From an uncultured Gemmatimonadales bacterium (GTDB taxonomy: Bacteria; Gemmatimonadota; Gemmatimonadetes; Gemmatimonadales; GWC2-71-9): DNA of 64,000 bases. The notes below the pieces were generated by a model, which saw only the letters and a list, made by a program, of their open reading frames with translations, was not told the origin of the DNA and made no database searches. This document shows, one piece after another, positions 27,727 through 38,832 of this stretch. Position 1 is the first letter of the stretch. Every line of letters starts with the position of its first letter. The stretch spans positions 1,280,001 through 1,344,000 of the forward strand of contig CAWCFX010000001.1 of the NCBI GenBank assembly GCA_963795085.1, read 5' to 3'. Both the position numbers and the translations under genes were made by a program.

Positions 27727-29097
27727 ATGTTCGCGCGCCGAATCGCTCTTCTCATCCCTCTGCTTCCCCTGCTCGCCTGCGGCACCCCCGAACCGGCGAA
27801 GCAGCCGGCGGCCACGACGGCTTCCAGCGACTCCGCCTGGGTTTCCCAAAGCGCCCTCTATGAAGTGTTCGTCCGGGATTTCTCACCGACCGGCGATTTC
27901 AAGGGTGTCATGGCCGGGCTGGACCGGATCGCCGCCACCGGGGCCAACGTGATCTGGCTGATGCCGATCCACCCCGTGGGCGTACTGAACCGAAAGGGCA
28001 CGCTTGGATCATCCTACGCGGTCCGGGACTACCTGGCGGTCAACCCCGAGTACGGGACAAAGGAAGATTTTCGAGCCCTGGTGGACTCCGTGCACCGGCG
28101 GGGGATGAAACTGATCATCGACTGGGTGCCTAACCATACGTCCCCCGACAACGTCTGGGTCGGCGAACATCCCGATTTCTACGTCCGGGACGCCCAGGGT
28201 CAGCTGATCACCCCGATCGACGGCGACGGCAAGCCCACCGACTGGACCGACGTCGCCGAGCTGGACTACGGCAAGCCGGCGCTGCGGCAGGCCATGACCG
28301 CGGCGATGACCCACTGGCTGGTGGAATACGGACTCGACGGGTTCCGGGTGGACGTCGCGGGCTTCGTGCCCTACGACTACTGGCGGGAGGCCGTCCCCGC
28401 GCTCCGGGCCTCGGTGCCCCGTCCCATCCTCCTGCTGGCCGAGTGGGGTGATCTCGAAATGCACCGCCTGGGGTATGACCTGACCTACGGGTGGGACGGG
28501 TACGCCCGGCTCAAGGCCGTCTGGAAAGGCGCCCCCGCCTCGACCTTCGTGCAGGGCGAGTTGCCGCAGATGGATTCAATGCCGGCCGGCGGCGCCCGGC
28601 TTCGTTTCAGCACCAACCACGATGAGACCGCGTGGGACCTGCCCGCCATTGCGCTATTTCAGGGCCCGGCTGGCGCGCGTGCGGCGTTTGTCGCCATCAC
28701 CCTGCTGCCCGGCCGTCCCCTCCTGTACAATGGCCAGGAGGTAGAAAGCCCCCAGAAACTTCCGCTCTTCGAGCGGGACCCGATCACCTGGGACCGTGCC
28801 GGGGCCGATAGCGCCCGCGCTTTCTACCGCCGGGTCATCGAACTCTCCCGGACCGAGCCCGACCTGCGCTCCGGAAGCCTGCACGAGGTTGAGACCAGCG
28901 CCCCAGCCGACATCATCGCGTACCGGCGGGGAGCTCTCACGGTCCTGGTAAACCCGCGGGCGGCCGAGCGACGGTTTACTCTGGTCAATGCCGACCCGGC
29001 CGGTTCGACTGACCTGCTCAGCGGCCGCGCGCATGGGGCGCCGGACGTGACGCTTCCAGCCTATGGCGCGGTCGTGCTCAAGCCCGCGGCGCGATGA
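27727..29097 (+). CDS. GH13 alpha-amylase-family lipoprotein (GH13_36-like)
   Basis: Lipobox LLAC, LYEVFVRDF, WLMPIHP, DWVPNHT, DGFRVDVAG, LAE, TNHDE, LYNGQE. Confidence 0.88.
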   Translation: MFARRIALLIPLLPLLACGTPEPAKQPAATTASSDSAWVSQSALYEVFVRDFSPTGDFKGVMAGLDRIAATGANVIWLMPIHPVGVLNRKGTLGSSYAVRDYLAVNPEYGTKEDFRALVDSVHRRGMKLIIDWVPNHTSPDNVWVGEHPDFYVRDAQGQLITPIDGDGKPTDWTDVAELDYGKPALRQAMTAAMTHWLVEYGLDGFRVDVAGFVPYDYWREAVPALRASVPRPILLLAEWGDLEMHRLGYDLTYGWDGYARLKAVWKGAPASTFVQGELPQMDSMPAGGARLRFSTNHDETAWDLPAIALFQGPAGARAAFVAITLLPGRPLLYNGQEVESPQKLPLFERDPITWDRAGADSARAFYRRVIELSRTEPDLRSGSLHEVETSAPADIIAYRRGALTVLVNPRAAERRFTLVNADPAGSTDLLSGRAHGAPDVTLPAYGAVVLKPAAR

Positions 29098-31639
29098 AGC
29101 GACGGACTTTCCTGGAAGGGGTGACCGCCGCCGGGATGGTGGCCTCTCTGGGCAGCGCATGCCGGGACCAGCCAGGCAGCGAGTCAGTGCGGCAGTCTCT
29201 TCGTCTCGATAGCGACTGGAAATTTCTCCGCCGGGACGTGGACGGTGGCGCGGCACCCGGGCTGGACGACTCCGCATGGCAGTCCGCCACCCTCCCCCAC
29301 ACCGCCCGGGTCGAGTCCCTGGTCACTGGACCGGTGGGATCGCCCACCGGGCAGTGGCAGGGCATCTGCTGGTACCGCCGCCGGCTGGTGGTCGATCCCT
29401 CGCCCGACGCCCGCTTCTTTCTTCGCTTCGAAGGCGCCATGAACGTCGCCGAGGTCTGGCTCGACGGCACCCGGATCGGGGAGCACCAGGGCGGCTATCT
29501 CCCGTTCGTCCTCGACATAACCGACCGGGTGCGGGAAGGACGTGACCACCTGCTGGCCGTGCGGCTCGACAACCGGGACAATCCGGTGACCGGCCCCAAG
29601 CCGCTCGAGCAGCTGGACTTCAACATGTACCACGGGCTCTACCGGCCGGTGTACCTGGTACGGAAGGACCGGCTGCACCTGACCGACCCGGTCCAGGCCA
29701 ACGTCCCGGCTGGGGGAGGAATCTTCGTCACCTATCCACGGGTGAGCGCCGCCGCTGCCACTGTCCGGGTGCGGGCTCACGTCCGGAACGATCACGCCGA
29801 GGCGCGCGAGTGCCGGGTGCGCGCCGTATTGCGGGGCCCGGACGGCGGGGTCGCGGCCGAGTCGGTGTCAGCCGGGCGGTCGATTGGGCCGGGGACCGCC
29901 GCAGAATTCGGGCAGGAACTCGAGGTTTCCTCGCCGCGGCTCTGGAGTCCCTCCCATCCCGCGCTCTATACCCTCTCGGCCGAGGTCATCAGCGGGGGGA
30001 AGGTGGTGGACGCCGAGTCACTCCGGGTGGGGATCCGGCAGATCAGCATTGCGAAGGACGGGGTCCGGATCAATGGCGAGCGGATGTTCCTGCGCGGGGC
30101 CAACCGGCACCAGGAGTACCCCTACATCGGGTACGCCCTCTCGGATGCGGCCCAGTACCGCGATGCGAGGAAAATCAAGGAAGCGGGATTCGACTACGTC
30201 CGCCTGTCGCACTATCCCCATGCGCCGGCCTTCATGGACGCCTGTGACGAGCTCGGTCTGGTCGTCATGGACTGCATTCCCGGCTGGCAATACTTTAATC
30301 CGGATCCGGCCTTCGCTGCATTGCAATACCAGAACTGCCGCGACCTGGTGCGGCGGGACCGGAACCATCCCTGCGTCATACTCTGGGAGGTCTCCCTCAA
30401 CGAGTCGGGGATGACGCCGGAGTTCGTGGCCCGCACCCACGCGATCGCCCACGAGGAGTATCCCGGGGACCAGTGCTACACCGCCGGCTGGATGGCGGGC
30501 TACGACGTGATCCTCGAGGCGCGGCAGCACGCCGGGTGCCGGAACGACGGGCCGACGCCCTGCCTGGTGAGCGAGTACGGCGACTGGGAGTACTACGCGA
30601 TGAACGCCGGGCTGGACCAGGGCGCCTGGGCCGACCTCGTCCCCGGCGGAGAGCAACAGCCGCCAGCTCCGGTGGCAGGGCGAGCGGGCCCAGCTGCAGC
30701 AGGCCACCAACTTCCAGGAGGCCCACAACGACAACCTGGCCACCCCGGCTATCGGCGACGGGCTCTGGGTGATGTTCGATTACAACCGGGGCTACGCGCC
30801 CGACATCGAGTCCTCCGGCTGCATGGACATCTTCCGGCTCCCCAAGTACTCCCGGTACTTCTTCCGGAGCCAGCGCGGGCCGGGTGAACTGGTGGCCGGC
30901 GTAGCGGCCGGGCCGATGGTCTTCATCGCCAGCGAGTGGGCCGCCGGCTCAAGCGCAGAGGTACGGGTGTTCAGCAACTGCGAGGAGGTGGCGCTGCAGC
31001 CTCGATGGCCGGGTGCTCGAGCGGCGCCGGCCCGACCAGGACCGGATCAGCAGCCGGCTGGCCCACCCACCCTTCAGCTTCGCCACCGGCGGGTTCACGC
31101 CGGGAACGCTCGAGGCGATTGGGTACATAGGCGGGCGCGAATCCGCCCGGCATTCGCTCAGGACACCGGGTGCTCCCAACCGCCTCCTGCTGTCCATCGA
31201 CCAGTCGGGGCGGCCCCGGGACCGGTCCAGGAAGGACCAGGTGTTCTGCCATGCCTCGATAGTTGACGCGAATGGGACCGTCATCGCCCCTGCCTGGGAG
31301 CACGTCGCCTTCGGCCTCGCCGGCGGTGGCGCGCTGGTCGGGGATAACCCCGCCACCACCGATGCCGGGATCGCCACGATCCTTGTCGAGTGCCTGCCCG
31401 GCGCGGCTCCCTCCTCGGTTTATGCCCTGGCCCTGTTGCCGGAGGGCGGTCCGGTCCGGGTACTCAGCGGGTCGGTGGGGATCGATCACGCGCCGGAACC
31501 TCACTCGGTGAGTCTCACCGGCGAACGGGCCGAACTTTCGGCGGCCGGCCGGGTCGTGGCCAGCCTGAGCTCCGGAGCGCCCAGGTTCCGGATCCCGGTT
31601 TCAACGCCGCCCGGCCGCCGGGGCGTGTTCCATCGATGA
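29094..31639 (+). CDS. GH2 beta-galactosidase-like enzyme with Tat signal, split by two +1 frameshifts (~30641-30644 and ~31000); 847 aa when corrected
   Basis: RRTFL Tat motif; FEGAM, GGYLPF, GLYRPV, GANRHQEYP, RLSHYP, DRNHP, LNES, SEYG. Continues in shifted frames as GDGLWVMFDYNRGY...DIFRLPK...VFSNCEEV and then LDGRVLE...LAHPPF...GTLEAIGY. Confidence 0.85.
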
Positions 31640-31687: not shown

Positions 31688-34338
31688 GTGCCCGCCCTGA
31701 CAACCATTGTTCCTTCGCTGGCTCTGCTCCTCGTGTTCTTCTCCATGGGCACCCGCGACGCGGTGGCCCAGCGGGAGGACGCCCCCCGGCCGGCCACCCG
31801 GGCGATCGACCTGGACCGGCAGGGTGTGATGCGCTGGCGTGATGACCGGACCGAGGTTGCCCTGTTCGGCGCCAACTACGTGGTGACGACCGCTTCCGAC
31901 TACCGGGCCGCCGGCGCCGTCGGGGCCGACCGGAAGAAAATGATCGACGAGGACATGGCCCACTTCGCCCGTATGGGCTGGGACGGGATCCGGCTCACCT
32001 TCTGGGGAGACTGGGAGTCGGCCGACACCCTGGGCAACCTGATCGAGAACGATCACCTCGACCTGCTCGACTACCTGACGGCCAAGGCGCGGGAGCGGGG
32101 GATCTACATGCTCTTCAGCCCGATCCAGCTCTACAACGCCAAATGGCCCGACGCGCTGAGCGACACGACCTCGCCCGGCTTCGGCCGGCGCTACAGCCGC
32201 GAGACGATGGGGACCGACCCCGCCGCCATCGCCGCGCAGGAGAACTACCTCCGGCAGATCCTCCACCACGTGAATCCCTATACCGGCGTCGCCTATAAGG
32301 ACGAGCCCGGGATCGCCTTCATCGAGCTGGTCAACGAGCCGGTGCACCACCCGGAGGACCTCGAGGGGTCGGTGCGCTACATCAACCGGCTGATCGACGC
32401 GGTGCGGAGCACCGGGACCCGGAAGCCGATCTTCTACAACGTGAGCCAGGATTTCCGGATCAGCGAGGCGATCGCCCGGTCGAAGCTCGATGGCATCGCG
32501 TTCGGCTGGTACCCGACCGGGCTCAACTCCGGGGCGGAACTCCGGGGCAACTACCTTCGGGGGACGGACGACTTCCCGGACATGCGGCGGCCGGAACTGG
32601 CCCGGTTCCCCCGGATCGTGTACGAGTTCGATGCCCCGGACCTCACCGAAGCGACCATGTATCCCGCGATGGCCCGGACTTTCCGGGTGGTAGGGACCCA
32701 GTTCGCCGCCATGTTCGCCTACGACATGCTGCGAACCGCTTCCCGCAACCTCGGCTGGCAGACCCACTACCTGAACCTGGTCTATACGCCTCGCAAGGCG
32801 ATGAGCACCATCATCGCCGCCGAGGCGATGCGCCGGTTGCCGCGGGGCCGGTCGTGGGGCACCTATCCCGGTAATCTCCGGTTCGGCGACTTCCGGATTT
32901 CCCCCGACAGCAACCTCTCCGAGCTGGTGGCGGCCGACGCGTTTCTGCATGCCGGCTCGACCGGCTCGGTGCCGCCCGACCCCGGCCCGTCTCAGCCGGG
33001 TCGCGGGATACGGCTCGTCGCCGGTGGTCCGGTATGAGGGGGAGGGAACCTGGTTCCTGGACCGGATCCGGGAGGGCCTCTGGCGGCTCGAGGTCTATCC
33101 GGACGCGGTGCCGGTGCGCGACCCGTTCGAGTTGCAGAGCGCCGACAAGATCGTCACCCGGGCTATCTACCGTTCCTGGCCCATGACCGTGACGCTGCCG
33201 GGGCTGGGTGGAACCTTCCAGGTGCAGCCGCTGGCGGCTGGAAACCCGTCATCCACCCGTGCGGCTGCCGGCACCTTCATGGTGCGGCCGGGGGTGTACC
33301 TGCTCAGCGCCACCGGTCCCGTCGATGCCGCCAGCCTGCCGAAATTCGTGGCCGGGGTCGGCCTCGCCGAGTTTCATCATCCGGGCGCCGACTCAATGGC
33401 GCCGGTTGTCACTGCACTGGGGGGGCCGGAACATGAGGCGGGGCGGGATCTCTCGCTCTCCGCCCGGGTGGTGGGGGAGTCGCCGCCCGATTCCGTCACC
33501 CTGTTCATCCGGCGTACGGCCGGGGACTGGTACCGCGGACACCGCATGGCTCCTTCCGCGGCCTACCAGTGGACTGCGACCGTGCCCGGCGATCAACTCA
33601 CAGATGGCTGGTACGAGTATGTCATCACGACGTATCATCGCGGGTCGGCCGTTACGTACCCTGAGGCGCTCCCGCTGCAGCCCTGGGACTGGAACTACTA
33701 CGGCCGGGAATCCTGGCCGCTCAGCGTGGCCACGGCGGGCACTCCGATCCAGGTCTTCAGCCCGTCGCGTGACGCCAGCCGCCTCGCGTTCACCCGGATC
33801 GGCGATGCCGGCCGCCGCGGTCTCTTTCGGATCGGGCTGTCGGCGGCGACCGGCCGGCCGGTATTTCGTCTTGAACTGCCGGTGGGCCGCGACAGCGTGC
33901 CGGTCCCGGACTACACCGCCTCCCTGGTCATTCTCGACCGGGTGAGGAGCCGCGGGGCCACGGTCCGGACCTTCGACGCCCTCCGGGTCCGCGCGAGGGC
34001 CATCGGTGCAGGCCAGCGACTGCATCTCACCCTCATGGAAGACGACGGCACCAGCTGGACGACCGCGGTCACGCTGGATTCCACCTGGACCGAACACACC
34101 ATTCCGCTGACCCGTTTTTCGGTCGGGCGCGGCGTACTGCTGCCCCAGGGATTTCCGGGGGAATGGAACTACTGGGTCGGGACCGGCGGACGGGCGGGGC
34201 GGGGCGGGGGACCGTCTCCGGCTGGACCAACTGGAACGCCTGCAGCTCTCCCTGCGGGAAGCCGGCGGGAGGAAGGTCGAGCCAGGAAGCTACGGGGTGG
34301 AAATCGAGAGCGTCCTGCTGGTCACGGGCGAGGAGTGA
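31688..34338 (+). CDS. Secreted clan GH-A glycoside hydrolase (GH147 beta-galactosidase-like / GH5-like), split by two +1 frameshifts (~32980-32983 and ~34179-34181); 882 aa when corrected
   Basis: Signal peptide; GVMRW...FGANY, GNLIENDHLDLLDYL, HVNPYTG, ELVNEP (acid/base), VYEFD (nucleophile), FAYD. Continues as VAGYGSSPVVRYEGEGTWFLD...WRLEVYPDAV and ends ...LERLQLSL...YGVEIESVLL. The family call is from recall. Confidence 0.65.
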
Positions 34339-34381
34339 TCAGTCCGTGCGGCCGCCCAACTTGGAAGGGCGTGATATCGGC

Positions 34382-34695
34382 GTGGGCGGATGGTTTCGAG
34401 GCGCTATACCGCAAAGGGCGGGCCTCTCCGCGCCGCTTTCAGTCGCCTGCCTTCTCTGCGTTAAGGTCGCGGATGGGTGACGGTCTCCTGGATGTGAGCG
34501 TGCCTTGCCACGAACGCACGAAACACCTACGAAACGGAAAATCAGATCAACGACCCTTGCGGCCCATCGGGCCGACAGGCTTCGTTTCAAGATTGTGACT
34601 GTTTCCTGTTTTGTTGTTGTGGTGTTTGGCTTGTTCGTGACAAAGGCAGGGTCGGCCTCGGAACCGTGAAGGAAGCCAGGCTGCAGCCCGCCCAC
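34382..34695. repeat. Multi-stem inverted-repeat element between convergent genes
   Basis: GTGGGCGG (34382-89) / CCGCCCAC (34688-95); GGTTTCGAGG (34392-401) / CCTCGGAACC (34656-65); imperfect long arms 34501-34540 / 34602-34648; inner hairpin CGGCCC-ATC-GGGCCG (34560-74). Confidence 0.55.
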
Positions 34696-34714
34696 TTCGA
34701 AGCCCCGATGACCC

Positions 34715-35959
34715 TTACCGATCGTTCTTCAGGAACCCGATCCGGGGCCGTTCCCGCTGCAGGGTTTCCGCATCGAGGGTGATATCCTCGGCCTGGAGCT
34801 CGGTCAGTTCGGCGATCTCCATCCGTCCGTCGGCGGCGGCCCGCGACGCCATCCGGGCGTAGGCCTGCTCGAACAACGACCGGGCAAAACGGGCGTTGCC
34901 GAAGTTGGGCCGCCGGGTCACCTCGGCAAAGACGCCGGCCGCCTTGTCGAGGGCTTCGGCGGTGAGGGCGAGTCCGGCTGTTTCAGTGAAGCGCTGGAAG
35001 ATGCGCAGGAGTTCCGCGGCCGAATAGTCGGGGAAGTCGATATAGGTGCGAAAGCGGCTTCGGAGGCCCGGGTTGGACCCGATAAAATCGGCCATCTCGT
35101 CGGCGTATCCTGCCACGACCAGGGCCAGCTCGCTCCGATGGTCCTCCATGGCCTTGACGAGGGTTGCGATCGCCTCGTTGCCGAAATCCACGTTTCCCGA
35201 CGGAGCCAGGGCGTAGGCTTCGTCGATGAACAGCACGCCGGGCCTGGTGCGGTTGATCAGTTCGGTGGTCTTGATGGCGGTCTGCCCCACGTAGCCGGCC
35301 ACCAGGTCGGCGCGGGTGGCCTCGATGAAGCCGGTCCCTGGCAATGCCCCGACGGCGCCGTAGAGCCGTGCGACCAGCCGGGCCACCGTGGTCTTGCCGG
35401 TCCCGGGCGGCCCCGTGAAGACCAGGTGGAGGCTGGGATTGACCACCGCAAGCCCCGCTTTCTCCCGGTGCATATTGGCCTCGACCACGGCGATCACGCT
35501 TCTGACCTGGGCCTTGACCGGTCCCAGGCCCACCAGGCCATCGAGCTCGGCCATGATATCCGCCGGATCTTCGGCGGCCGTCCGCGTGGCTTCCACCGGT
35601 TGCGCCGCGGCGGCCGGCTGGGCTTCCGCCCCCGACAGGCGGACCGGGCCGCTGCCGTCCGCGCGGGTCCCTGAATCCGGGCTGGGCCGCAGGGCACTGA
35701 GGGCCGCGGTCACCGCGTCGAGTTCGGTGCTGATCGAAGCGAGCAGGACGGTGGCCGCCTCGGTCATGGCGGGCGGGGTATGCGATCGCCCCGGCGGTTC
35801 CAGGGCGGCCCGGGCCCGGTCGAGCAGGGGCCCCAGCTCGCCGTGGTTGCGGAATCGCCGGGCGATCGCGAACACCACGTGCCGCGCTTCGACCGTGTCA
35901 TGCCCAGAGGCCTTGGCGGTCGAAACGGCGGCATCCTGGAGCTGGGATCGGAGCATCAT
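34715..35959 (-). CDS. SpoVK/CbbX/EccA-clade AAA+ ATPase with Clp-N-like N-terminal region and C-terminal RIGF motif
   Basis: ELDGLVGLGPVK, HLVFTGPPGTGKTTVAR, DLVAGYVGQTAIKT, VLFIDEAYAL, NPGLRSRF, FGNAR. N-terminus reads AVSTAKASGHDTVEARHVVFAI; tail reads RPRIGFLK. Confidence 0.88.
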   Translation of the reverse strand: MMLRSQLQDAAVSTAKASGHDTVEARHVVFAIARRFRNHGELGPLLDRARAALEPPGRSHTPPAMTEAATVLLASISTELDAVTAALSALRPSPDSGTRADGSGPVRLSGAEAQPAAAAQPVEATRTAAEDPADIMAELDGLVGLGPVKAQVRSVIAVVEANMHREKAGLAVVNPSLHLVFTGPPGTGKTTVARLVARLYGAVGALPGTGFIEATRADLVAGYVGQTAIKTTELINRTRPGVLFIDEAYALAPSGNVDFGNEAIATLVKAMEDHRSELALVVAGYADEMADFIGSNPGLRSRFRTYIDFPDYSAAELLRIFQRFTETAGLALTAEALDKAAGVFAEVTRRPNFGNARFARSLFEQAYARMASRAAADGRMEIAELTELQAEDITLDAETLQRERPRIGFLKNDR

Positions 35960-35968
35960 GTTCCTCGC

Positions 35969-36427
35969 TTACGGATCGATCCAGCGCTTGCCGCCGAACT
36001 TCTGCTGCAGGGTGTCATCCAGTTCGTCGGCGGCGCCCAGCACCCCGTACATCGCGGCCCGCAGTTCCTCTTCGTCGAGGTAGTCGCCCAGCAGGGTGTG
36101 GACCATCGAGATCGTCAGCATGCCGGCATTGTTCTGGTCATCGGCCACGATAATGCTGGCAAACCACTTCTGGGGCGCGGTCCGGACCAGGTACTCGTAC
36201 AGCGCAGGTGTCGGCGTCACACCGTAGAGGACGGGGGCCGAGATCCGGACCAGTGTCTGCGGCTCGCCATCCTTGTTTTTGCCCCAGTCCACAACCCGCA
36301 GGTGGGCCGCTGTACTCGAATCGGTGAAGGTCACCCGGATGAAGTCGCCCATCAGCTGGATCTGCAGGTTCATGGGGCCGGTCAGCAGCCGTTGCACCTT
36401 GATCATCGTCTGGTCAACGTTGGCCAT
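35969..36427 (-). CDS. YbjN / T3SS-chaperone-like (TY-Chap-type) protein
   Basis: 152 aa with SSTAAHLRV, VRISAPVLYGVTPTPALYEYL and HTLLGDYLDEEEL...AADELDDTLQQKFGG, a pattern I recognise from YbjN-like peptide-binding chaperones. Confidence 0.7.
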   Translation of the reverse strand: MANVDQTMIKVQRLLTGPMNLQIQLMGDFIRVTFTDSSTAAHLRVVDWGKNKDGEPQTLVRISAPVLYGVTPTPALYEYLVRTAPQKWFASIIVADDQNNAGMLTISMVHTLLGDYLDEEELRAAMYGVLGAADELDDTLQQKFGGKRWIDP

Positions 36428-36487
36428 GTCAGGATCTCGGGTGTGGAGGAAAGGAATCAGAAAGGATGGTTCCAGGTGCCATGAGCA

Positions 36488-36859
36488 CTACCGGACTCGC
36501 ACGGTGCTGTTGAAGATCTGCGGCGCGACGACGATGTCGACCAGGGCGCCGGGCGAAACCAGGACCTGGCCGGATCGGAATGGCTGCCCGTTCGAGGCGG
36601 GTTGCGCCTCGAACTCGATCGCCCCGCCGCCCACCAGGTTGGGGGGGAGCCGGAAGTCCGCCGACATGCCGGGATGCACGGTGCCCAGCCGCTGCCGGAT
36701 GCCGGAGCCGGAGGCAAAAATCTCGACCGGGAGCGCATAGTTGTTGGTGGTCCGCACCTCGACCGCGCTCAGGGGGGGCAGGGTATCCGTTCCGCCGGTG
36801 CGCGAACAGGCGGCAGCGGCCGCCAGGAGAAGCGTAAGGACCAGGGCCGCGCGACGCAT
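36488..36859 (-). CDS. Hypothetical lipoprotein (small beta-rich)
   Basis: MRRAALVLTLLLAAAAAC lipobox-like signal; GGAGG RBS upstream. Confidence 0.7.
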   Translation of the reverse strand: MRRAALVLTLLLAAAAACSRTGGTDTLPPLSAVEVRTTNNYALPVEIFASGSGIRQRLGTVHPGMSADFRLPPNLVGGGAIEFEAQPASNGQPFRSGQVLVSPGALVDIVVAPQIFNSTVRVR

Positions 36860-36904
36860 TCGGGGCGCCTCCAGGGTGAGGGATGCCGGGCGAGAGGACG
36901 TGCG

Positions 36905-37117
36905 TTATGGCGTGGTTCGGCTCCGCCCCCGGGCCCGGAGAGCCAGCAGCAGCATGATCAGGCCGAAGGCCAGCAACACCAGGCCCCACCAGAGATTCAC
37001 GTTGTACCCCAGGGAACGGGCATAGATCGCCGTGTCCGAGACCAGGCCGAAGACAGTCAGCATGGCGCCGAAAATCAGGAACATCAGCCCCATGGGGAGC
37101 CGCAAGTCGAGGTTCAT
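36905..37117 (-). CDS. Small two-TM membrane protein, probable partner of the solute:sodium symporter
   Basis: LDLRLPMGLMF...NVNLWWGLVLLAFG; lies 5 bp downstream of the SSS gene. Confidence 0.75.
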   Translation of the reverse strand: MNLDLRLPMGLMFLIFGAMLTVFGLVSDTAIYARSLGYNVNLWWGLVLLAFGLIMLLLALRARGRSRTTP

Positions 37118-37122
37118 CGCGG

Positions 37123-38832
37123 TTACCAGAAAATAATGTTGAGGACCAGCGTCGCGCCGAGGACGATCACCCCCAGGGCGGCCGGCCGACGGTACCAGGC
37201 CAGGTGGTGGTCCACCTCCCGCGGGGTGAGCGCATAGACCAGTCCACGGAGGTCATCGTCCGTCTTCCGGTCGCGGGTCACGAACGAGATCACGATCGTG
37301 GCGACGAAGCAGGTGGTCCAGGCGACGATGGCGGTCCAGAAGTTCTGAGCCATTTCGCTCGGGTAGGTGTGCATCACGGTGCCAAAAAAGCCGCCCTTGA
37401 TGCCGGGCGCCGAGTTGAGCGGCAGCGAAATGCCGTGGTGGATGGCCGCCGAGAGGGTGCCCAGGACCAGGCCGAAGAAGGCGCCATGGCCGGTGGCCCG
37501 GCGCCAGAACATGCCCAGCAGGAAGGTCGCGAACAGCGGCGCATTGACGAAAGCGAACACCAGCTGCAGCATGTCCATGATGTTGTTGAACTTGGTCGTG
37601 GCATACGCGGCGGCGATGCTCAGCAGGATGCCAAAGACGGTGGCAAAGTGCCCCATCCACAGGTAGTGGCGGTCGGTCTGTCCCGGCTTGATGTACGACT
37701 GGTAGATATCGTAGGTCCACACCGTGTTGAACGCGGTCACGTTCCCCGCCATGCCGGACATGAACGAGGCCATCAGGGCGGTGAGCCCGAGGCCCAGGAG
37801 GCCGGTGGGCAGGTAGTGCGCCAGCATTACCGGGATGGCCAGGTTGTACTCGGGGTTGCCATCGGCGCCGATCGGCAGGAAGCCGCCGCTGCTGGAGTGG
37901 AGCGCGATGGCGATCATGCCCGGGAGGATCACCAGGGCGGGAAACAGCATCTTGGGGAACGCCGCCACCAGCGGGGTCCGCCGGGCGGCGTTCATGGACT
38001 CGGCGGCCATGGCCCGCTGCACCACCAGGAAGTCGGTGCACCAGTAGCCGAAGGAAAGCACGAACCCGAGGCCCATGGCCATGCCGAACCACTCGACGCC
38101 CATGGGATTGGCCGCCGCGGACCCGAGGTGCTGCCAGGATTCGGTCCACGCCCCCGGGGCATAGCCGGCATCGGTCGCGACCGGGACCAGCTTTTCCTTG
38201 AGGCCGGACCAGCCGCCCACGTCCTTGAGGCCAAGCAGCACGAGGGGCAGAAAGCCCAGGACGATGAGGAAAAACTGGAGGACCTCGTTATAGATGGCCG
38301 AGGTAAGGCCCCCGAGGAAAATGTACACCAGCACGATGACCGCCGAGACCACGACGCTGGCGTGGAAGTTCCACCCCAGGATCAGTTCCAGCAGCTTGGC
38401 CAGCGCGTACATCGAGATGCCGGACGAAAAGACGGTCATCGCCGCGAAGGTGATGGCGTTGAAACCGCGGGTCTTCTCATCGAACCGGAGCCGGAGGTAC
38501 TCGGGAACCGAGCGGGCCCGGGATCCGTAATAGAACGGCATCATGAACACGCCCACGAAAACCATGGCCGGGATGGCGCCCACCCAGTAGAAATGGCTGG
38601 TCATGATCCCGTACTTGGCGCCCGATGCCGCCATGCCGATGACTTCCTGGGCGCCCAGGTTGGCCGAGAGAAACGCAAGGCCGGCAATCCAGGTGGGGAT
38701 CGACCGGCCGGAGAGGAAGAAATCGTCGCTGCTCTTGACGTAGCGGCGCAGGACCACGCCGATACCCAGCACAAAAGCGAAGTACACGATCAGAATGGCG
38801 TAGTCTATCGCGCCCAGCTGGATCTGATGCAC
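37123..38832 (-). CDS. Sodium:solute symporter (Na+/galactose cotransporter-like)
   Basis: DFFLSGRS, SANLGAQEVIGM, SVPEYLRLRF, GGLTSAIYNEVLQF, YWCTDFLVVQR, ASFMSG, TYDIY; many TM segments. Confidence 0.9.
   Translation of the reverse strand: MHQIQLGAIDYAILIVYFAFVLGIGVVLRRYVKSSDDFFLSGRSIPTWIAGLAFLSANLGAQEVIGMAASGAKYGIMTSHFYWVGAIPAMVFVGVFMMPFYYGSRARSVPEYLRLRFDEKTRGFNAITFAAMTVFSSGISMYALAKLLELILGWNFHASVVVSAVIVLVYIFLGGLTSAIYNEVLQFFLIVLGFLPLVLLGLKDVGGWSGLKEKLVPVATDAGYAPGAWTESWQHLGSAAANPMGVEWFGMAMGLGFVLSFGYWCTDFLVVQRAMAAESMNAARRTPLVAAFPKMLFPALVILPGMIAIALHSSSGGFLPIGADGNPEYNLAIPVMLAHYLPTGLLGLGLTALMASFMSGMAGNVTAFNTVWTYDIYQSYIKPGQTDRHYLWMGHFATVFGILLSIAAAYATTKFNNIMDMLQLVFAFVNAPLFATFLLGMFWRRATGHGAFFGLVLGTLSAAIHHGISLPLNSAPGIKGGFFGTVMHTYPSEMAQNFWTAIVAWTTCFVATIVISFVTRDRKTDDDLRGLVYALTPREVDHHLAWYRRPAALGVIVLGATLVLNIIFW

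Follow-up and report, generated by a model that had tools for sequence, protein, structure and literature searches.

What does a small chaperone-like protein do beside an AAA+ ATPase whose C-terminal tail carries the tripeptide I-G-F? The question is raised by two adjoining genes of an uncultured Gemmatimonadales bacterium (GenBank assembly GCA_963795085.1, contig CAWCFX010000001.1), located in a stretch of 64,000 nucleotides (positions 1,280,001 to 1,344,000) that was analysed as a whole and is called the window here. An earlier note, made from the letters alone, had singled out the pair as a candidate adaptor-unfoldase module. We found that the chaperone and the ATPase form a real, self-contained module, and it is likely that the two proteins work together as an unfoldase and its adaptor or regulator. 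The full model, in which they constitute an adaptor-guided, ClpP-coupled unfoldase operon, a ClpC look-alike on a different motor, is put forward more tentatively, at somewhat less than an even chance.

Conservation of the gene pair

Both open reading frames (ORFs) lie on the minus strand of the window, co-oriented and 9 bases apart as the earlier note had read them. The chaperone gene (35969-36427, minus strand; 152 amino acids) encodes the proposed adaptor, a protein of the TY-Chap1, YbjN and type III secretion system (T3SS) class-I chaperone fold, and the ATPase gene (34715-35959, minus strand, stop codon included; 414 amino acids) follows downstream. The spacer that separates the stop codon of the chaperone gene from the start of the ATPase gene (GCGAGGAAC; 35960-35968, minus strand) contains a GAGGA Shine-Dalgarno-like motif, and the two genes are therefore probably transcribed and translated together. 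Short gaps are also seen at orthologous loci, such as one of 16 bases in L035. A scan of 34300-37200 returned no promoter-like site and a single terminator-like site, which lay inside another gene and was no more than shuffled sequences gave.

A genome collection scanned with the ATPase yielded 30 close, full-length orthologous loci (L004-L033) and two actinobacterial loci that were 38% identical. The chaperone gene was directly upstream in 28 of the 30 close loci, the two misses being ATPase genes at a contig edge, and it was also upstream in both of the low-GC actinobacterial loci. Upstream DNA was available for 31 of the 33 genome loci, and the chaperone was found there in 30; the exception is a non-orthologue. 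The survey was also run from the side of the chaperone. Eighty metagenome loci were recovered, 69 with at least 250 bases of downstream sequence, and the ATPase with its N-terminal domain (N-domain) was directly downstream in 62 of these 69. Neither the chaperone nor the N-domain was found at any of 48 loci encoding core-only SpoVK-like ATPases. Clustering of ORFs over the 33 genome loci left the chaperone and the ATPase as the sole conserved genes, with no conserved third gene that might be a client, and Pfam assigned the 111 neighbouring ORFs of 18 loci and the window to unrelated metabolic, transport and regulatory functions. Conservation of the pair in other genomes, on which the adaptor-unfoldase proposal had been staked, was thus borne out.

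The carriers span at least five phyla and include Gemmatimonadota, Planctomycetota (among them Brocadiaceae), a Woeseiaceae gammaproteobacterium, a Thermoanaerobaculia acidobacterium and freshwater Actinobacteria. In a sample from the phylum of the window, 11 of 401 genomes encoded a member of the chaperone family and 4, G000 included, encoded close orthologues (E below 1e-40). With close orthologues in so few genomes of one phylum and carriers in several phyla, the module is therefore accessory and patchy. The pair is retained in a record of ~1.1 Mb (G401), and searches of plasmid, phage and IMG/VR collections with the chaperone gave no match.

The ATPase core

Residues 130-394 (34778-35572, minus strand) form an AAA+ module of the CbbX/SpoVK/EccA clade, as delimited by Pfam, the CbbX structure 3syl and the conserved columns. 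Pfam placed AAA at residues 180-310 and AAA_lid_6 at 335-393. Walker A (GPPGTGKT, 183-190), Walker B (D246-E247), the NPGLRSRF and GNAR motifs and pore loop 1 (G-Y-V-G, 222-225) were invariant or nearly so among 28 orthologues, in keeping with the earlier description of the Walker, arginine-finger and GNAR motifs as intact. [quoted passage not shown] All three signatures were present in the core. G284-Y285 (in V-V-A-G-Y) was invariant in the 28 orthologues, as was N296, which stands four residues ahead of the arginine finger R300 (N-P-G-L-R; conserved in at least 90%), and in the sensor-2 motif GNAR (354-357) the glycine and asparagine were invariant and the alanine and arginine reached at least 90%.

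The best NCBIfam models were SpoVK (E 2.1e-76), CbbX (3.9e-65) and EccA (9.1e-65), and the ATPase missed all three equivalog cut-offs. It scored 256.5 bits against a cut-off of 422.95 for SpoVK (TIGR02881), 220.0 against 459.25 for CbbX (TIGR02880) and 219.3 against 466.65 for EccA (TIGR03922), the last match being limited to the C-terminal AAA part of the model. The sole TPR match in Pfam, TPR_5 at E 0.039, fell under its cut-off. The nearest solved structures to the core were CbbX (3syl and 3zuh; E 1e-55, residues 132-394) and EccA1 (9lur; 8e-48). Full-length orthologues were 38-72% identical, and the closest homologues were named as Gemmatimonadales or Longimicrobium and not as sporulating Bacillota. 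The RuBisCO large subunit (PF00016) and WXG100, a marker for type VII secretion (T7SS), were not found in the whole genome of the window (93.4% complete), and no RuBisCO was seen in the neighbourhoods examined. The earlier remark that no Rubisco, T3SS or T7SS gene accompanies the pair therefore extends to the genome for RuBisCO and WXG100; T3SS genes were not searched for.

The N-terminal domain and linker

Ahead of the ring lies a compact N-terminal domain (residues 1-92; 35684-35959, minus strand) of five helices and two short strands, modelled with a predicted local distance difference test score (pLDDT) of 93.9 as two helix-strand-helix units. Such a pseudo-repeat of helix-strand-helix units is the Clp-N fold, and in ClpA, ClpB and ClpC the Clp-N domain is the docking domain for adaptors and substrates. 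A15, K16 and H27 were invariant. The domain is tethered to the ring by a linker rich in Ala, Pro and Gly (residues 93-129; 35573-35683, minus strand) that varies in sequence and length; its alignment consensus is x throughout, and pLDDT drops to 66 at residues 91-100.

The earlier note had likened this N-terminus to a Clp amino-terminal domain, a claim that stands for the fold and not for the sequence. Foldseek matches were nearly all Clp-type N-domains, with weak E-values (0.03 or more), and the PDB titles matched include the ClpS-ClpA, MecA-ClpC and YjbA-ClpC N-domain complexes. Pfam Clp_N gave no match at E<=0.1, hhalign against the N-domain of the genome's own ClpC returned a probability of 3.4%, and a search of the ESM Atlas with the N-domain produced no usable match. 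When the N-domain profile was compared with PDB sequences, the matches were to macroH2A at E 0.0028, to the N-domain of HSP101 at E 0.04 and to ClpC at E 1.4, in each case on the first helix-strand-helix unit. As modelled, the domain resembles Clp-N by fold, and it does not do so significantly by sequence.

The C-terminal tail

The ATPase ends in a tail (residues 395-414; 34718-34777, minus strand) of ~11 variable residues followed by R406-I407-G408-F409, and the I-G-F codons (ATC GGG TTC; 34733-34741, minus strand) encode the proposed ClpP-docking tripeptide. The final residues read R-P-R-I-G-F-L-K-N-D-R; the RPRIGF tail and the Ala/Pro linker of the earlier note are both there. G408 and F409 were present in 27 of 27 aligned orthologues (0 bits), I407 in 25 and R406 in 23. 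The sequence on either side, eleven residues ahead of the motif and all positions behind it, was highly variable (2.4-3.2 bits). Among the 120 best database homologues, 116 carried [IVLM]GF in the last 40 residues, 27 of them ending exactly at the motif Phe, and two more carried R-I-G-L; the two that lacked the motif are proteins of 671 and 713 residues. Complete C-termini were available for 38 metagenome loci, and 33 contained the full motif in the stretch shown. In four of the other five G-F alone is visible at the edge, and in L169 the gene is split over two frames. The motif was absent from all 48 core-only relatives, most of which end a few residues past the lid domain.

A [LIV]-G-[FL] tripeptide on a flexible element is a trait of ClpP partners, and the tail reads PRIGFLKN where the ClpP loops encoded by the same genome read QQIGFAKD (ClpX) and KSLGFHGA (ClpC). 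In place of an internal loop of an HCLR-clade module, the tripeptide occupies residues 407-409 of 414, on the tail of a classical-clade ring. It is established that Clp ATPases engage ClpP by placing their IGF loops in its hydrophobic H sites (available text of PMC9035409).

The chaperone

The description of the upstream protein as YbjN- and T3SS-chaperone-like was supported by both sequence and structure comparisons. The chaperone matched Pfam TY-Chap1 (PF22551) at E 4.4e-11 with 43 bits, above the cut-off of 27. An AlphaFold2 model built on the alignment of 28 orthologues (pLDDT 90.5) runs helix, five strands, helix, two strands and long helix, and has the alpha-beta-beta-beta-alpha-beta-beta-alpha chaperone fold of the superfamily of TY-Chap1, YbjN and T3SS class-I chaperones. 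The top Foldseek matches were 2plg (E 2.4e-5), then ExsC, AmyR, YbjN, SicP and CesT, that is, YbjN-family proteins and T3SS class-I chaperones, and the ESM Atlas neighbours were TY-Chap1 clusters. Mean column identity over the 28 orthologues was 61%, and an acidic motif, H-T-L-L-G-D-x-L-D-x-x-E-L, was invariant, together with a C-terminal F-G-G. Searching 1.84 billion proteins with the chaperone profile returned 1,147 cluster representatives at E<=1e-3. The best 150 of them matched as single TY-Chap domains, and these proteins are 87-347 residues long, most of them 140-160. A search for longer homologues found no fused chaperone-AAA protein, which is weak evidence. In the available text of PMC9503650, TY-Chap1 is defined in predicted conflict systems, as a predicted peptide-binding chaperone in ADP-ribose-centred systems without ATPases, and the available text of PMC5398634 describes YbjN-family proteins as generally found without secretion systems.

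One long frame was noted in an acidobacterial genome (G1361). L255:1480-5310 (minus strand) is a stop-free frame of 1,277 residues in which the TY-Chap1/YbjN/CesT_Tir_1 match is confined to the last 140 residues and no Pfam family is found in the first 1,130. Either a fusion or simply an open frame in GC-rich DNA could account for it, and with TY-Chap1 at its end alone it was not accepted as a chaperone fusion. The same genome holds a second chaperone copy that adjoins a ClpC-like ATPase (L254).

Other partners of the chaperone family

Relatives of the chaperone were also found beside ClpC-like ATPases. The family was matched in 18 of 301 genomes in a Planctomycetota sample, and at 7 of the 17 new loci, those with the seven best scores, a ClpC-like ATPase is the neighbour; an Acidobacteriota sample gave matches in 17 of 301 genomes, with a ClpC-like neighbour at 2 of 17 new loci. 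An Actinomycetota sample gave matches in 35 of 401 genomes and a CbbX-type ATPase at 0 of 29 new loci. At one actinomycetotal locus, L129 (extended as L214), the chaperone gene lies 4 bases after that of a 746-residue ClpC-like ATPase. Seven of the 69 metagenome loci are exceptions to the CbbX-type pairing (L209, L202, L203, L138, L176, L193 and L204). In L209 and L202 a ClpC-like ATPase starts 4 bases after the chaperone, in L203 a Clp-N-like ORF (hhalign probability 38.6%) is cut by the contig end, and the other four show no ATPase, two of them with only ~300 bases of downstream DNA.

In the ClpC-like pairings the two genes form an operon, and in most cases they either lie 4 bases apart or overlap. 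The partners have a D1 and a D2 module (AAA, AAA_lid_9 and AAA_2, plus ClpB_D2-small in L209 and L249), and all of them carry [IVM]GF at the ClpP-loop position (A-G-I-G-F-T, T-P-V-G-F-V, S-Q-M-G-F-V, R-A-I-G-F-G, K-S-I-G-F-G, R-P-I-G-F-L, A-P-V-G-F-A and R-P-V-G-F-G). The N-domain of the L209 partner aligned with that of the window family over 85 columns (hhalign probability 78.7%, E 1.7e-5), and that of L250 aligned over the first unit only (8%). The operonic association of chaperone relatives with ClpC-like double-ring ATPases that bear a Clp-N-type domain and an [IVM]GF loop is new here.

In a quick, midpoint-rooted tree of the chaperones, 27 of the 28 with CbbX-type partners fell in one clade (98 in the Shimodaira-Hasegawa-like approximate likelihood ratio test, SH-aLRT), nested in a larger group of 43, in which eight other chaperones have ClpC-like partners. 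Partnership with ClpC-like ATPases was scattered in the tree, and well-supported branches forced at least four changes. Whatever the partner type, this chaperone lineage is accompanied by a domain of the Clp-N type, a ring that is an unfoldase and the motif [IVLM]GF; what varies is the motor and the place of the motif, in a loop or on a tail.

Two of the unpaired metagenome chaperones, L138 and L176, score as well as paired ones (profile E ~1e-75). The downstream ORF is lumazine-binding (riboflavin-synthase-like) in L138 and unrelated in L176, and loss, rearrangement or chimeric assembly could account for these loci.

A second kind of chaperone-plus-NTPase pair for the family was seen in Actinomycetota. 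At 15 of the 29 new loci an ArsA/Get3-like P-loop ATPase is encoded directly upstream of, and co-oriented with, a distant TY-Chap1 relative (L110, L112-L114, L116-L119, L121, L123, L125, L126, L128, L130 and L132), and these regions also contain a WhiB-family regulator and a transglycosylase (penicillin-binding protein, PBP) gene. When L107 and L108, from unpublished genomes, are left out, the counts are 0 of 27 for CbbX-type and 15 of 27 for ArsA-like neighbours.

Proposed mechanism

Hexamer formation, chaperone docking on the N-domain and tail docking on ClpP are the three steps that we infer. In the model, the ATPase would form a hexameric ring of the classical-AAA CbbX/SpoVK/EccA type, with flexibly tethered Clp-N-like domains on the entry face that would receive the TY-Chap1 protein. 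This protein may hold an extended segment of the client or otherwise gate access, and the client would be threaded through the G-Y-V-G pore loops. In rings of the classical AAA clade it is on the exit face that the C-terminus emerges, as it does when proteasomal ATPases sit on the 20S particle, and a tail of ~15 residues is therefore plausible as a tether. Six C-terminal R-x-IGF tails on the exit face would plug the hydrophobic sites of the housekeeping ClpP ring, by which the unfolded chain would then be degraded. The chaperone would thus act on the Clp-N domain like MecA, ClpS and YjbA, and the tripeptide as in ClpX, ClpA and ClpC; by analogy with these Clp ATPases, this appears to be the most economical reading. 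The conserved IGF tail, taken together with the pairing of chaperone relatives with ClpC-like [IVM]GF ATPases, makes an adaptor with a ClpP-coupled unfoldase more credible.

With slightly less confidence than in the model itself, we suggest that the ATPases may represent an unrecognised family of ClpP partners outside the Clp/HCLR lineage, in which a CbbX/SpoVK-type ring gained a Clp-N domain in trimmed form and an IGF tail at its C-terminus and replaced a ClpC-like motor while the adaptor of T3SS-chaperone fold was kept.

Several observations weigh against coupling to ClpP. The window's genome encodes ClpP, as do 5 of 5 genomes of other phyla that bear the pair, which is uninformative because ClpP is nearly universal. 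ClpP adjoins the pair at a single one of the 33 genome loci (L015) and at none of the 80 metagenome loci, and there is therefore no genomic link to it. To our knowledge, all known ClpP partners are HCLR-clade ATPases with the tripeptide on an internal loop, and they have been thought limited to ClpX and the ClpA/C/E group. A three-residue motif can also serve other partners, such as the chaperone or the N-domain, and the chaperone tree, of 98 sequences, is a quick maximum-likelihood one that was midpoint-rooted. Finally, the CbbX/SpoVK/EccA clade has been described as free of peptidase links. Those who defined the SpoVK-EccA-like clade report, in the available text, no evidence of peptidase association and view its members as narrow, non-degradative chaperones (PMC11513918).

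The ClpP gene in L015 (L015:4033-4692, plus strand) encodes a paralogue that is 41% identical to the ClpP of the window's genome and has no adjacent ClpX. It lies ~850 bases upstream of the pair, with a YCII gene on the other strand between them. Its position is probably due to chance, and with this locus alone to draw on, ClpP neighbourhood was rejected as evidence.

Alternative explanations

The main rival is a dedicated remodeler that works without ClpP, like CbbX, SpoVK and EccA, on a single client presented or received by the chaperone, with no degradation. Here the IGF tail would dock the chaperone, auto-inhibit on the Clp-N groove or contact other subunits. We regard this explanation as possible and on the unlikely side. 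By all three published signatures the core belongs to a clade whose characterised members, in the available text, hit narrow targets without a peptidase (PMC11513918), and the lack of a genomic link to ClpP points the same way. In addition, the surroundings of the invariant motifs are strongly acidic in the chaperone and the tail and N-domain are basic, so that contact of the chaperone with either of them is plausible. Against this reading, the neighbourhoods encode no conserved gene that might be the client, and RuBisCO and WXG100 were not found in the genome. It also leaves unexplained both the [IVL]-G-[FL] tripeptide of the tail with its upstream basic residues and the same tripeptide at the ClpP-loop position of the ClpC-like partners.

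The earlier note had also suggested a conflict or defence role, in which the chaperone would sense a foreign or modified protein and the ATPase would be the effector or activator. A patchy distribution that crosses phyla (4 of 401 genomes in its own phylum, at least five phyla in all) would suit such an anti-phage module, as would PIN, SNase or Schlafen-type helicase neighbours at a few loci and the definition of TY-Chap1 in predicted ADP-ribose-centred conflict systems in the available text of PMC9503650. The suggestion nevertheless gained no support from the searches and is improbable. PADLOC-DB 2.0 gave the chaperone no family, and its matches to the ATPase were weak, partial and of a generic AAA kind (IetA, E 1e-8 over ~100 residues; TRIP13, E 1.7e-5). 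No effector domain was seen, the plasmid, phage and IMG/VR searches were empty, and the neighbours are mostly metabolic or transport genes that are not conserved. Both proteins are well conserved and not diversifying, and the pair is kept even in the ~1.1 Mb record.

A secretion-type pair serving an export system encoded elsewhere, by the logic of EccA in T7SS or of chaperone release in T3SS, is very improbable: the chaperone has the fold of T3SS class-I chaperones and the core matches EccA1 (E 8e-48), but the search of the genome for WXG100 was negative, the neighbourhoods examined showed no secretion genes, the EccA equivalog cut-off was missed with no TPR domain present, and YbjN-family proteins generally occur without secretion systems in the available text of PMC5398634.

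Relation to known systems

The proposed ClpP-coupled operon is closest in plan to ClpC-MecA on ClpP, and also resembles ClpA-ClpS and ClpX-SspB. A linker-tethered domain of Clp-N fold precedes the AAA+ ring, and, as in ClpC-MecA, a small dedicated partner is encoded alongside, [IVL]-G-[FL] is conserved and the pore loop is aromatic. Unlike ClpC, the ATPase has a single classical-AAA ring in place of HCLR-clade D1 and D2 modules, carries the tripeptide on a C-terminal tail and not in an internal loop, and has an N-domain trimmed to ~92 residues and missed by Pfam Clp_N. The folds of MecA, ClpS and SspB differ from the T3SS-chaperone/YbjN fold, and the partner described here is unlike all three in having the latter. 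The ClpC-like double-ring ATPases described above (L202, L209, L214 and L249-L254) share with the window's ATPase the same chaperone family, a tight operon, a Clp-N-type domain and [IVM]GF; theirs are Clp/Hsp100-type D1 and D2 modules with an internal-loop tripeptide, in proteins of 672 to ~800 residues.

CbbX, the red-type Rubisco activase (3syl, 3zuh), provides the closest solved core and shares the clade signatures and the pore loop. The solved CbbX chains (289-309 residues) match residues 132-394 only, with no counterpart of the N-domain or the IGF tail seen, the TIGR02880 cut-off was missed and the RuBisCO large subunit was not found in the genome. EccA of T7SS and SpoVK, a MurG chaperone in sporulation, belong to the same higher-order clade and differ in that the window's ATPase has a Clp-N-like N-domain, misses their equivalog cut-offs and comes from a genome in which WXG100 was not found. 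PAN, Mpa/ARC and Cdc48 are classical-clade rings, attached to the 20S particle through HbYX-type tails at the C-terminus. The ATPase may be compared with these proteasomal ATPases in that short C-terminal tails of a classical-clade ring would plug the pockets of a peptidase ring; it differs in having IGF, of the ClpP type, in place of hydrophobic-Tyr-X, with ClpP as the presumed peptidase. The N-domains listed for the SpoVK-EccA-like clade in the available text of PMC11513918 are TPR, beta-helix, beta-prism and SF1 helicase, and the Clp-N type is unmentioned there.

The chaperone belongs to the same Pfam family and has the same fold as the TY-Chap1 proteins of ADP-ribosylglycohydrolase (ARG) systems and YbjN/AmyR. 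Unlike in ARG systems, no ARG, Nudix/WYL regulator or phosphatase is encoded nearby, and the constant partner is an AAA+ ATPase, a link unmentioned for TY-Chap1 of ARG-centred systems in the available text of PMC9503650. Our literature search found no paper that ties TY-Chap1 or YbjN to AAA+ or Clp ATPases. It also found no C-terminal IGF on a classical-clade ring, an architecture that the supplement of PMC11513918, unread here, may show.

If the model is correct, the pair would be a new bacterial route for feeding proteins to ClpP and would contain the first Clp adaptor with a YbjN/CesT fold. Coupling to ClpP would have been re-invented via a short added tail, as in proteasomal ATPases, and more proteins would have to be considered in studies of ClpP activators or inhibitors. 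The YbjN/TY-Chap1 family, large and obscure in function, would gain a concrete role, open to test, as adaptors of unfoldases that carry a Clp-N domain. That ClpC-like ATPases are paired in parallel offers a natural experiment in motor exchange, and the hypothesis can be tested directly with four proteins.

Neighbouring genes

An ORF of 123 amino acids (36488-36859, minus strand) with a lipoprotein-like signal, a hydrophobic stretch followed by Cys, lies 60 bases upstream of the chaperone gene. It matched no family in Pfam, NCBIfam or PADLOC, had no homologue at any of the related loci, and was ruled out as a member of the module on these grounds.

Two Gemmatimonadota loci have a GNAT (FR47-like) acetyltransferase gene that overlaps the stop codon of the ATPase (L017:7250-8110 and L030:7242-8093, plus strand), and each has an EamA transporter gene further downstream. 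One more case is hinted at by an ORF cluster from three loci to which L017:7250-8110 belongs. The overlap is probably local synteny among relatives.

On the plus strand of the window, a GH2-family glycosidase gene (29094-31639) seems to run on in two other frames, the ORFs of this region being 29094-30887, 30769-31266 and 31013-31639. At 31688-34598, also on the plus strand, an ORF of 449 amino acids (31688-33037) overlaps one of 549 amino acids (32949-34598), the end of which resembles out-of-frame sequence. Judged from the translations alone, the broken frames in both regions could be frameshifts or assembly indels.

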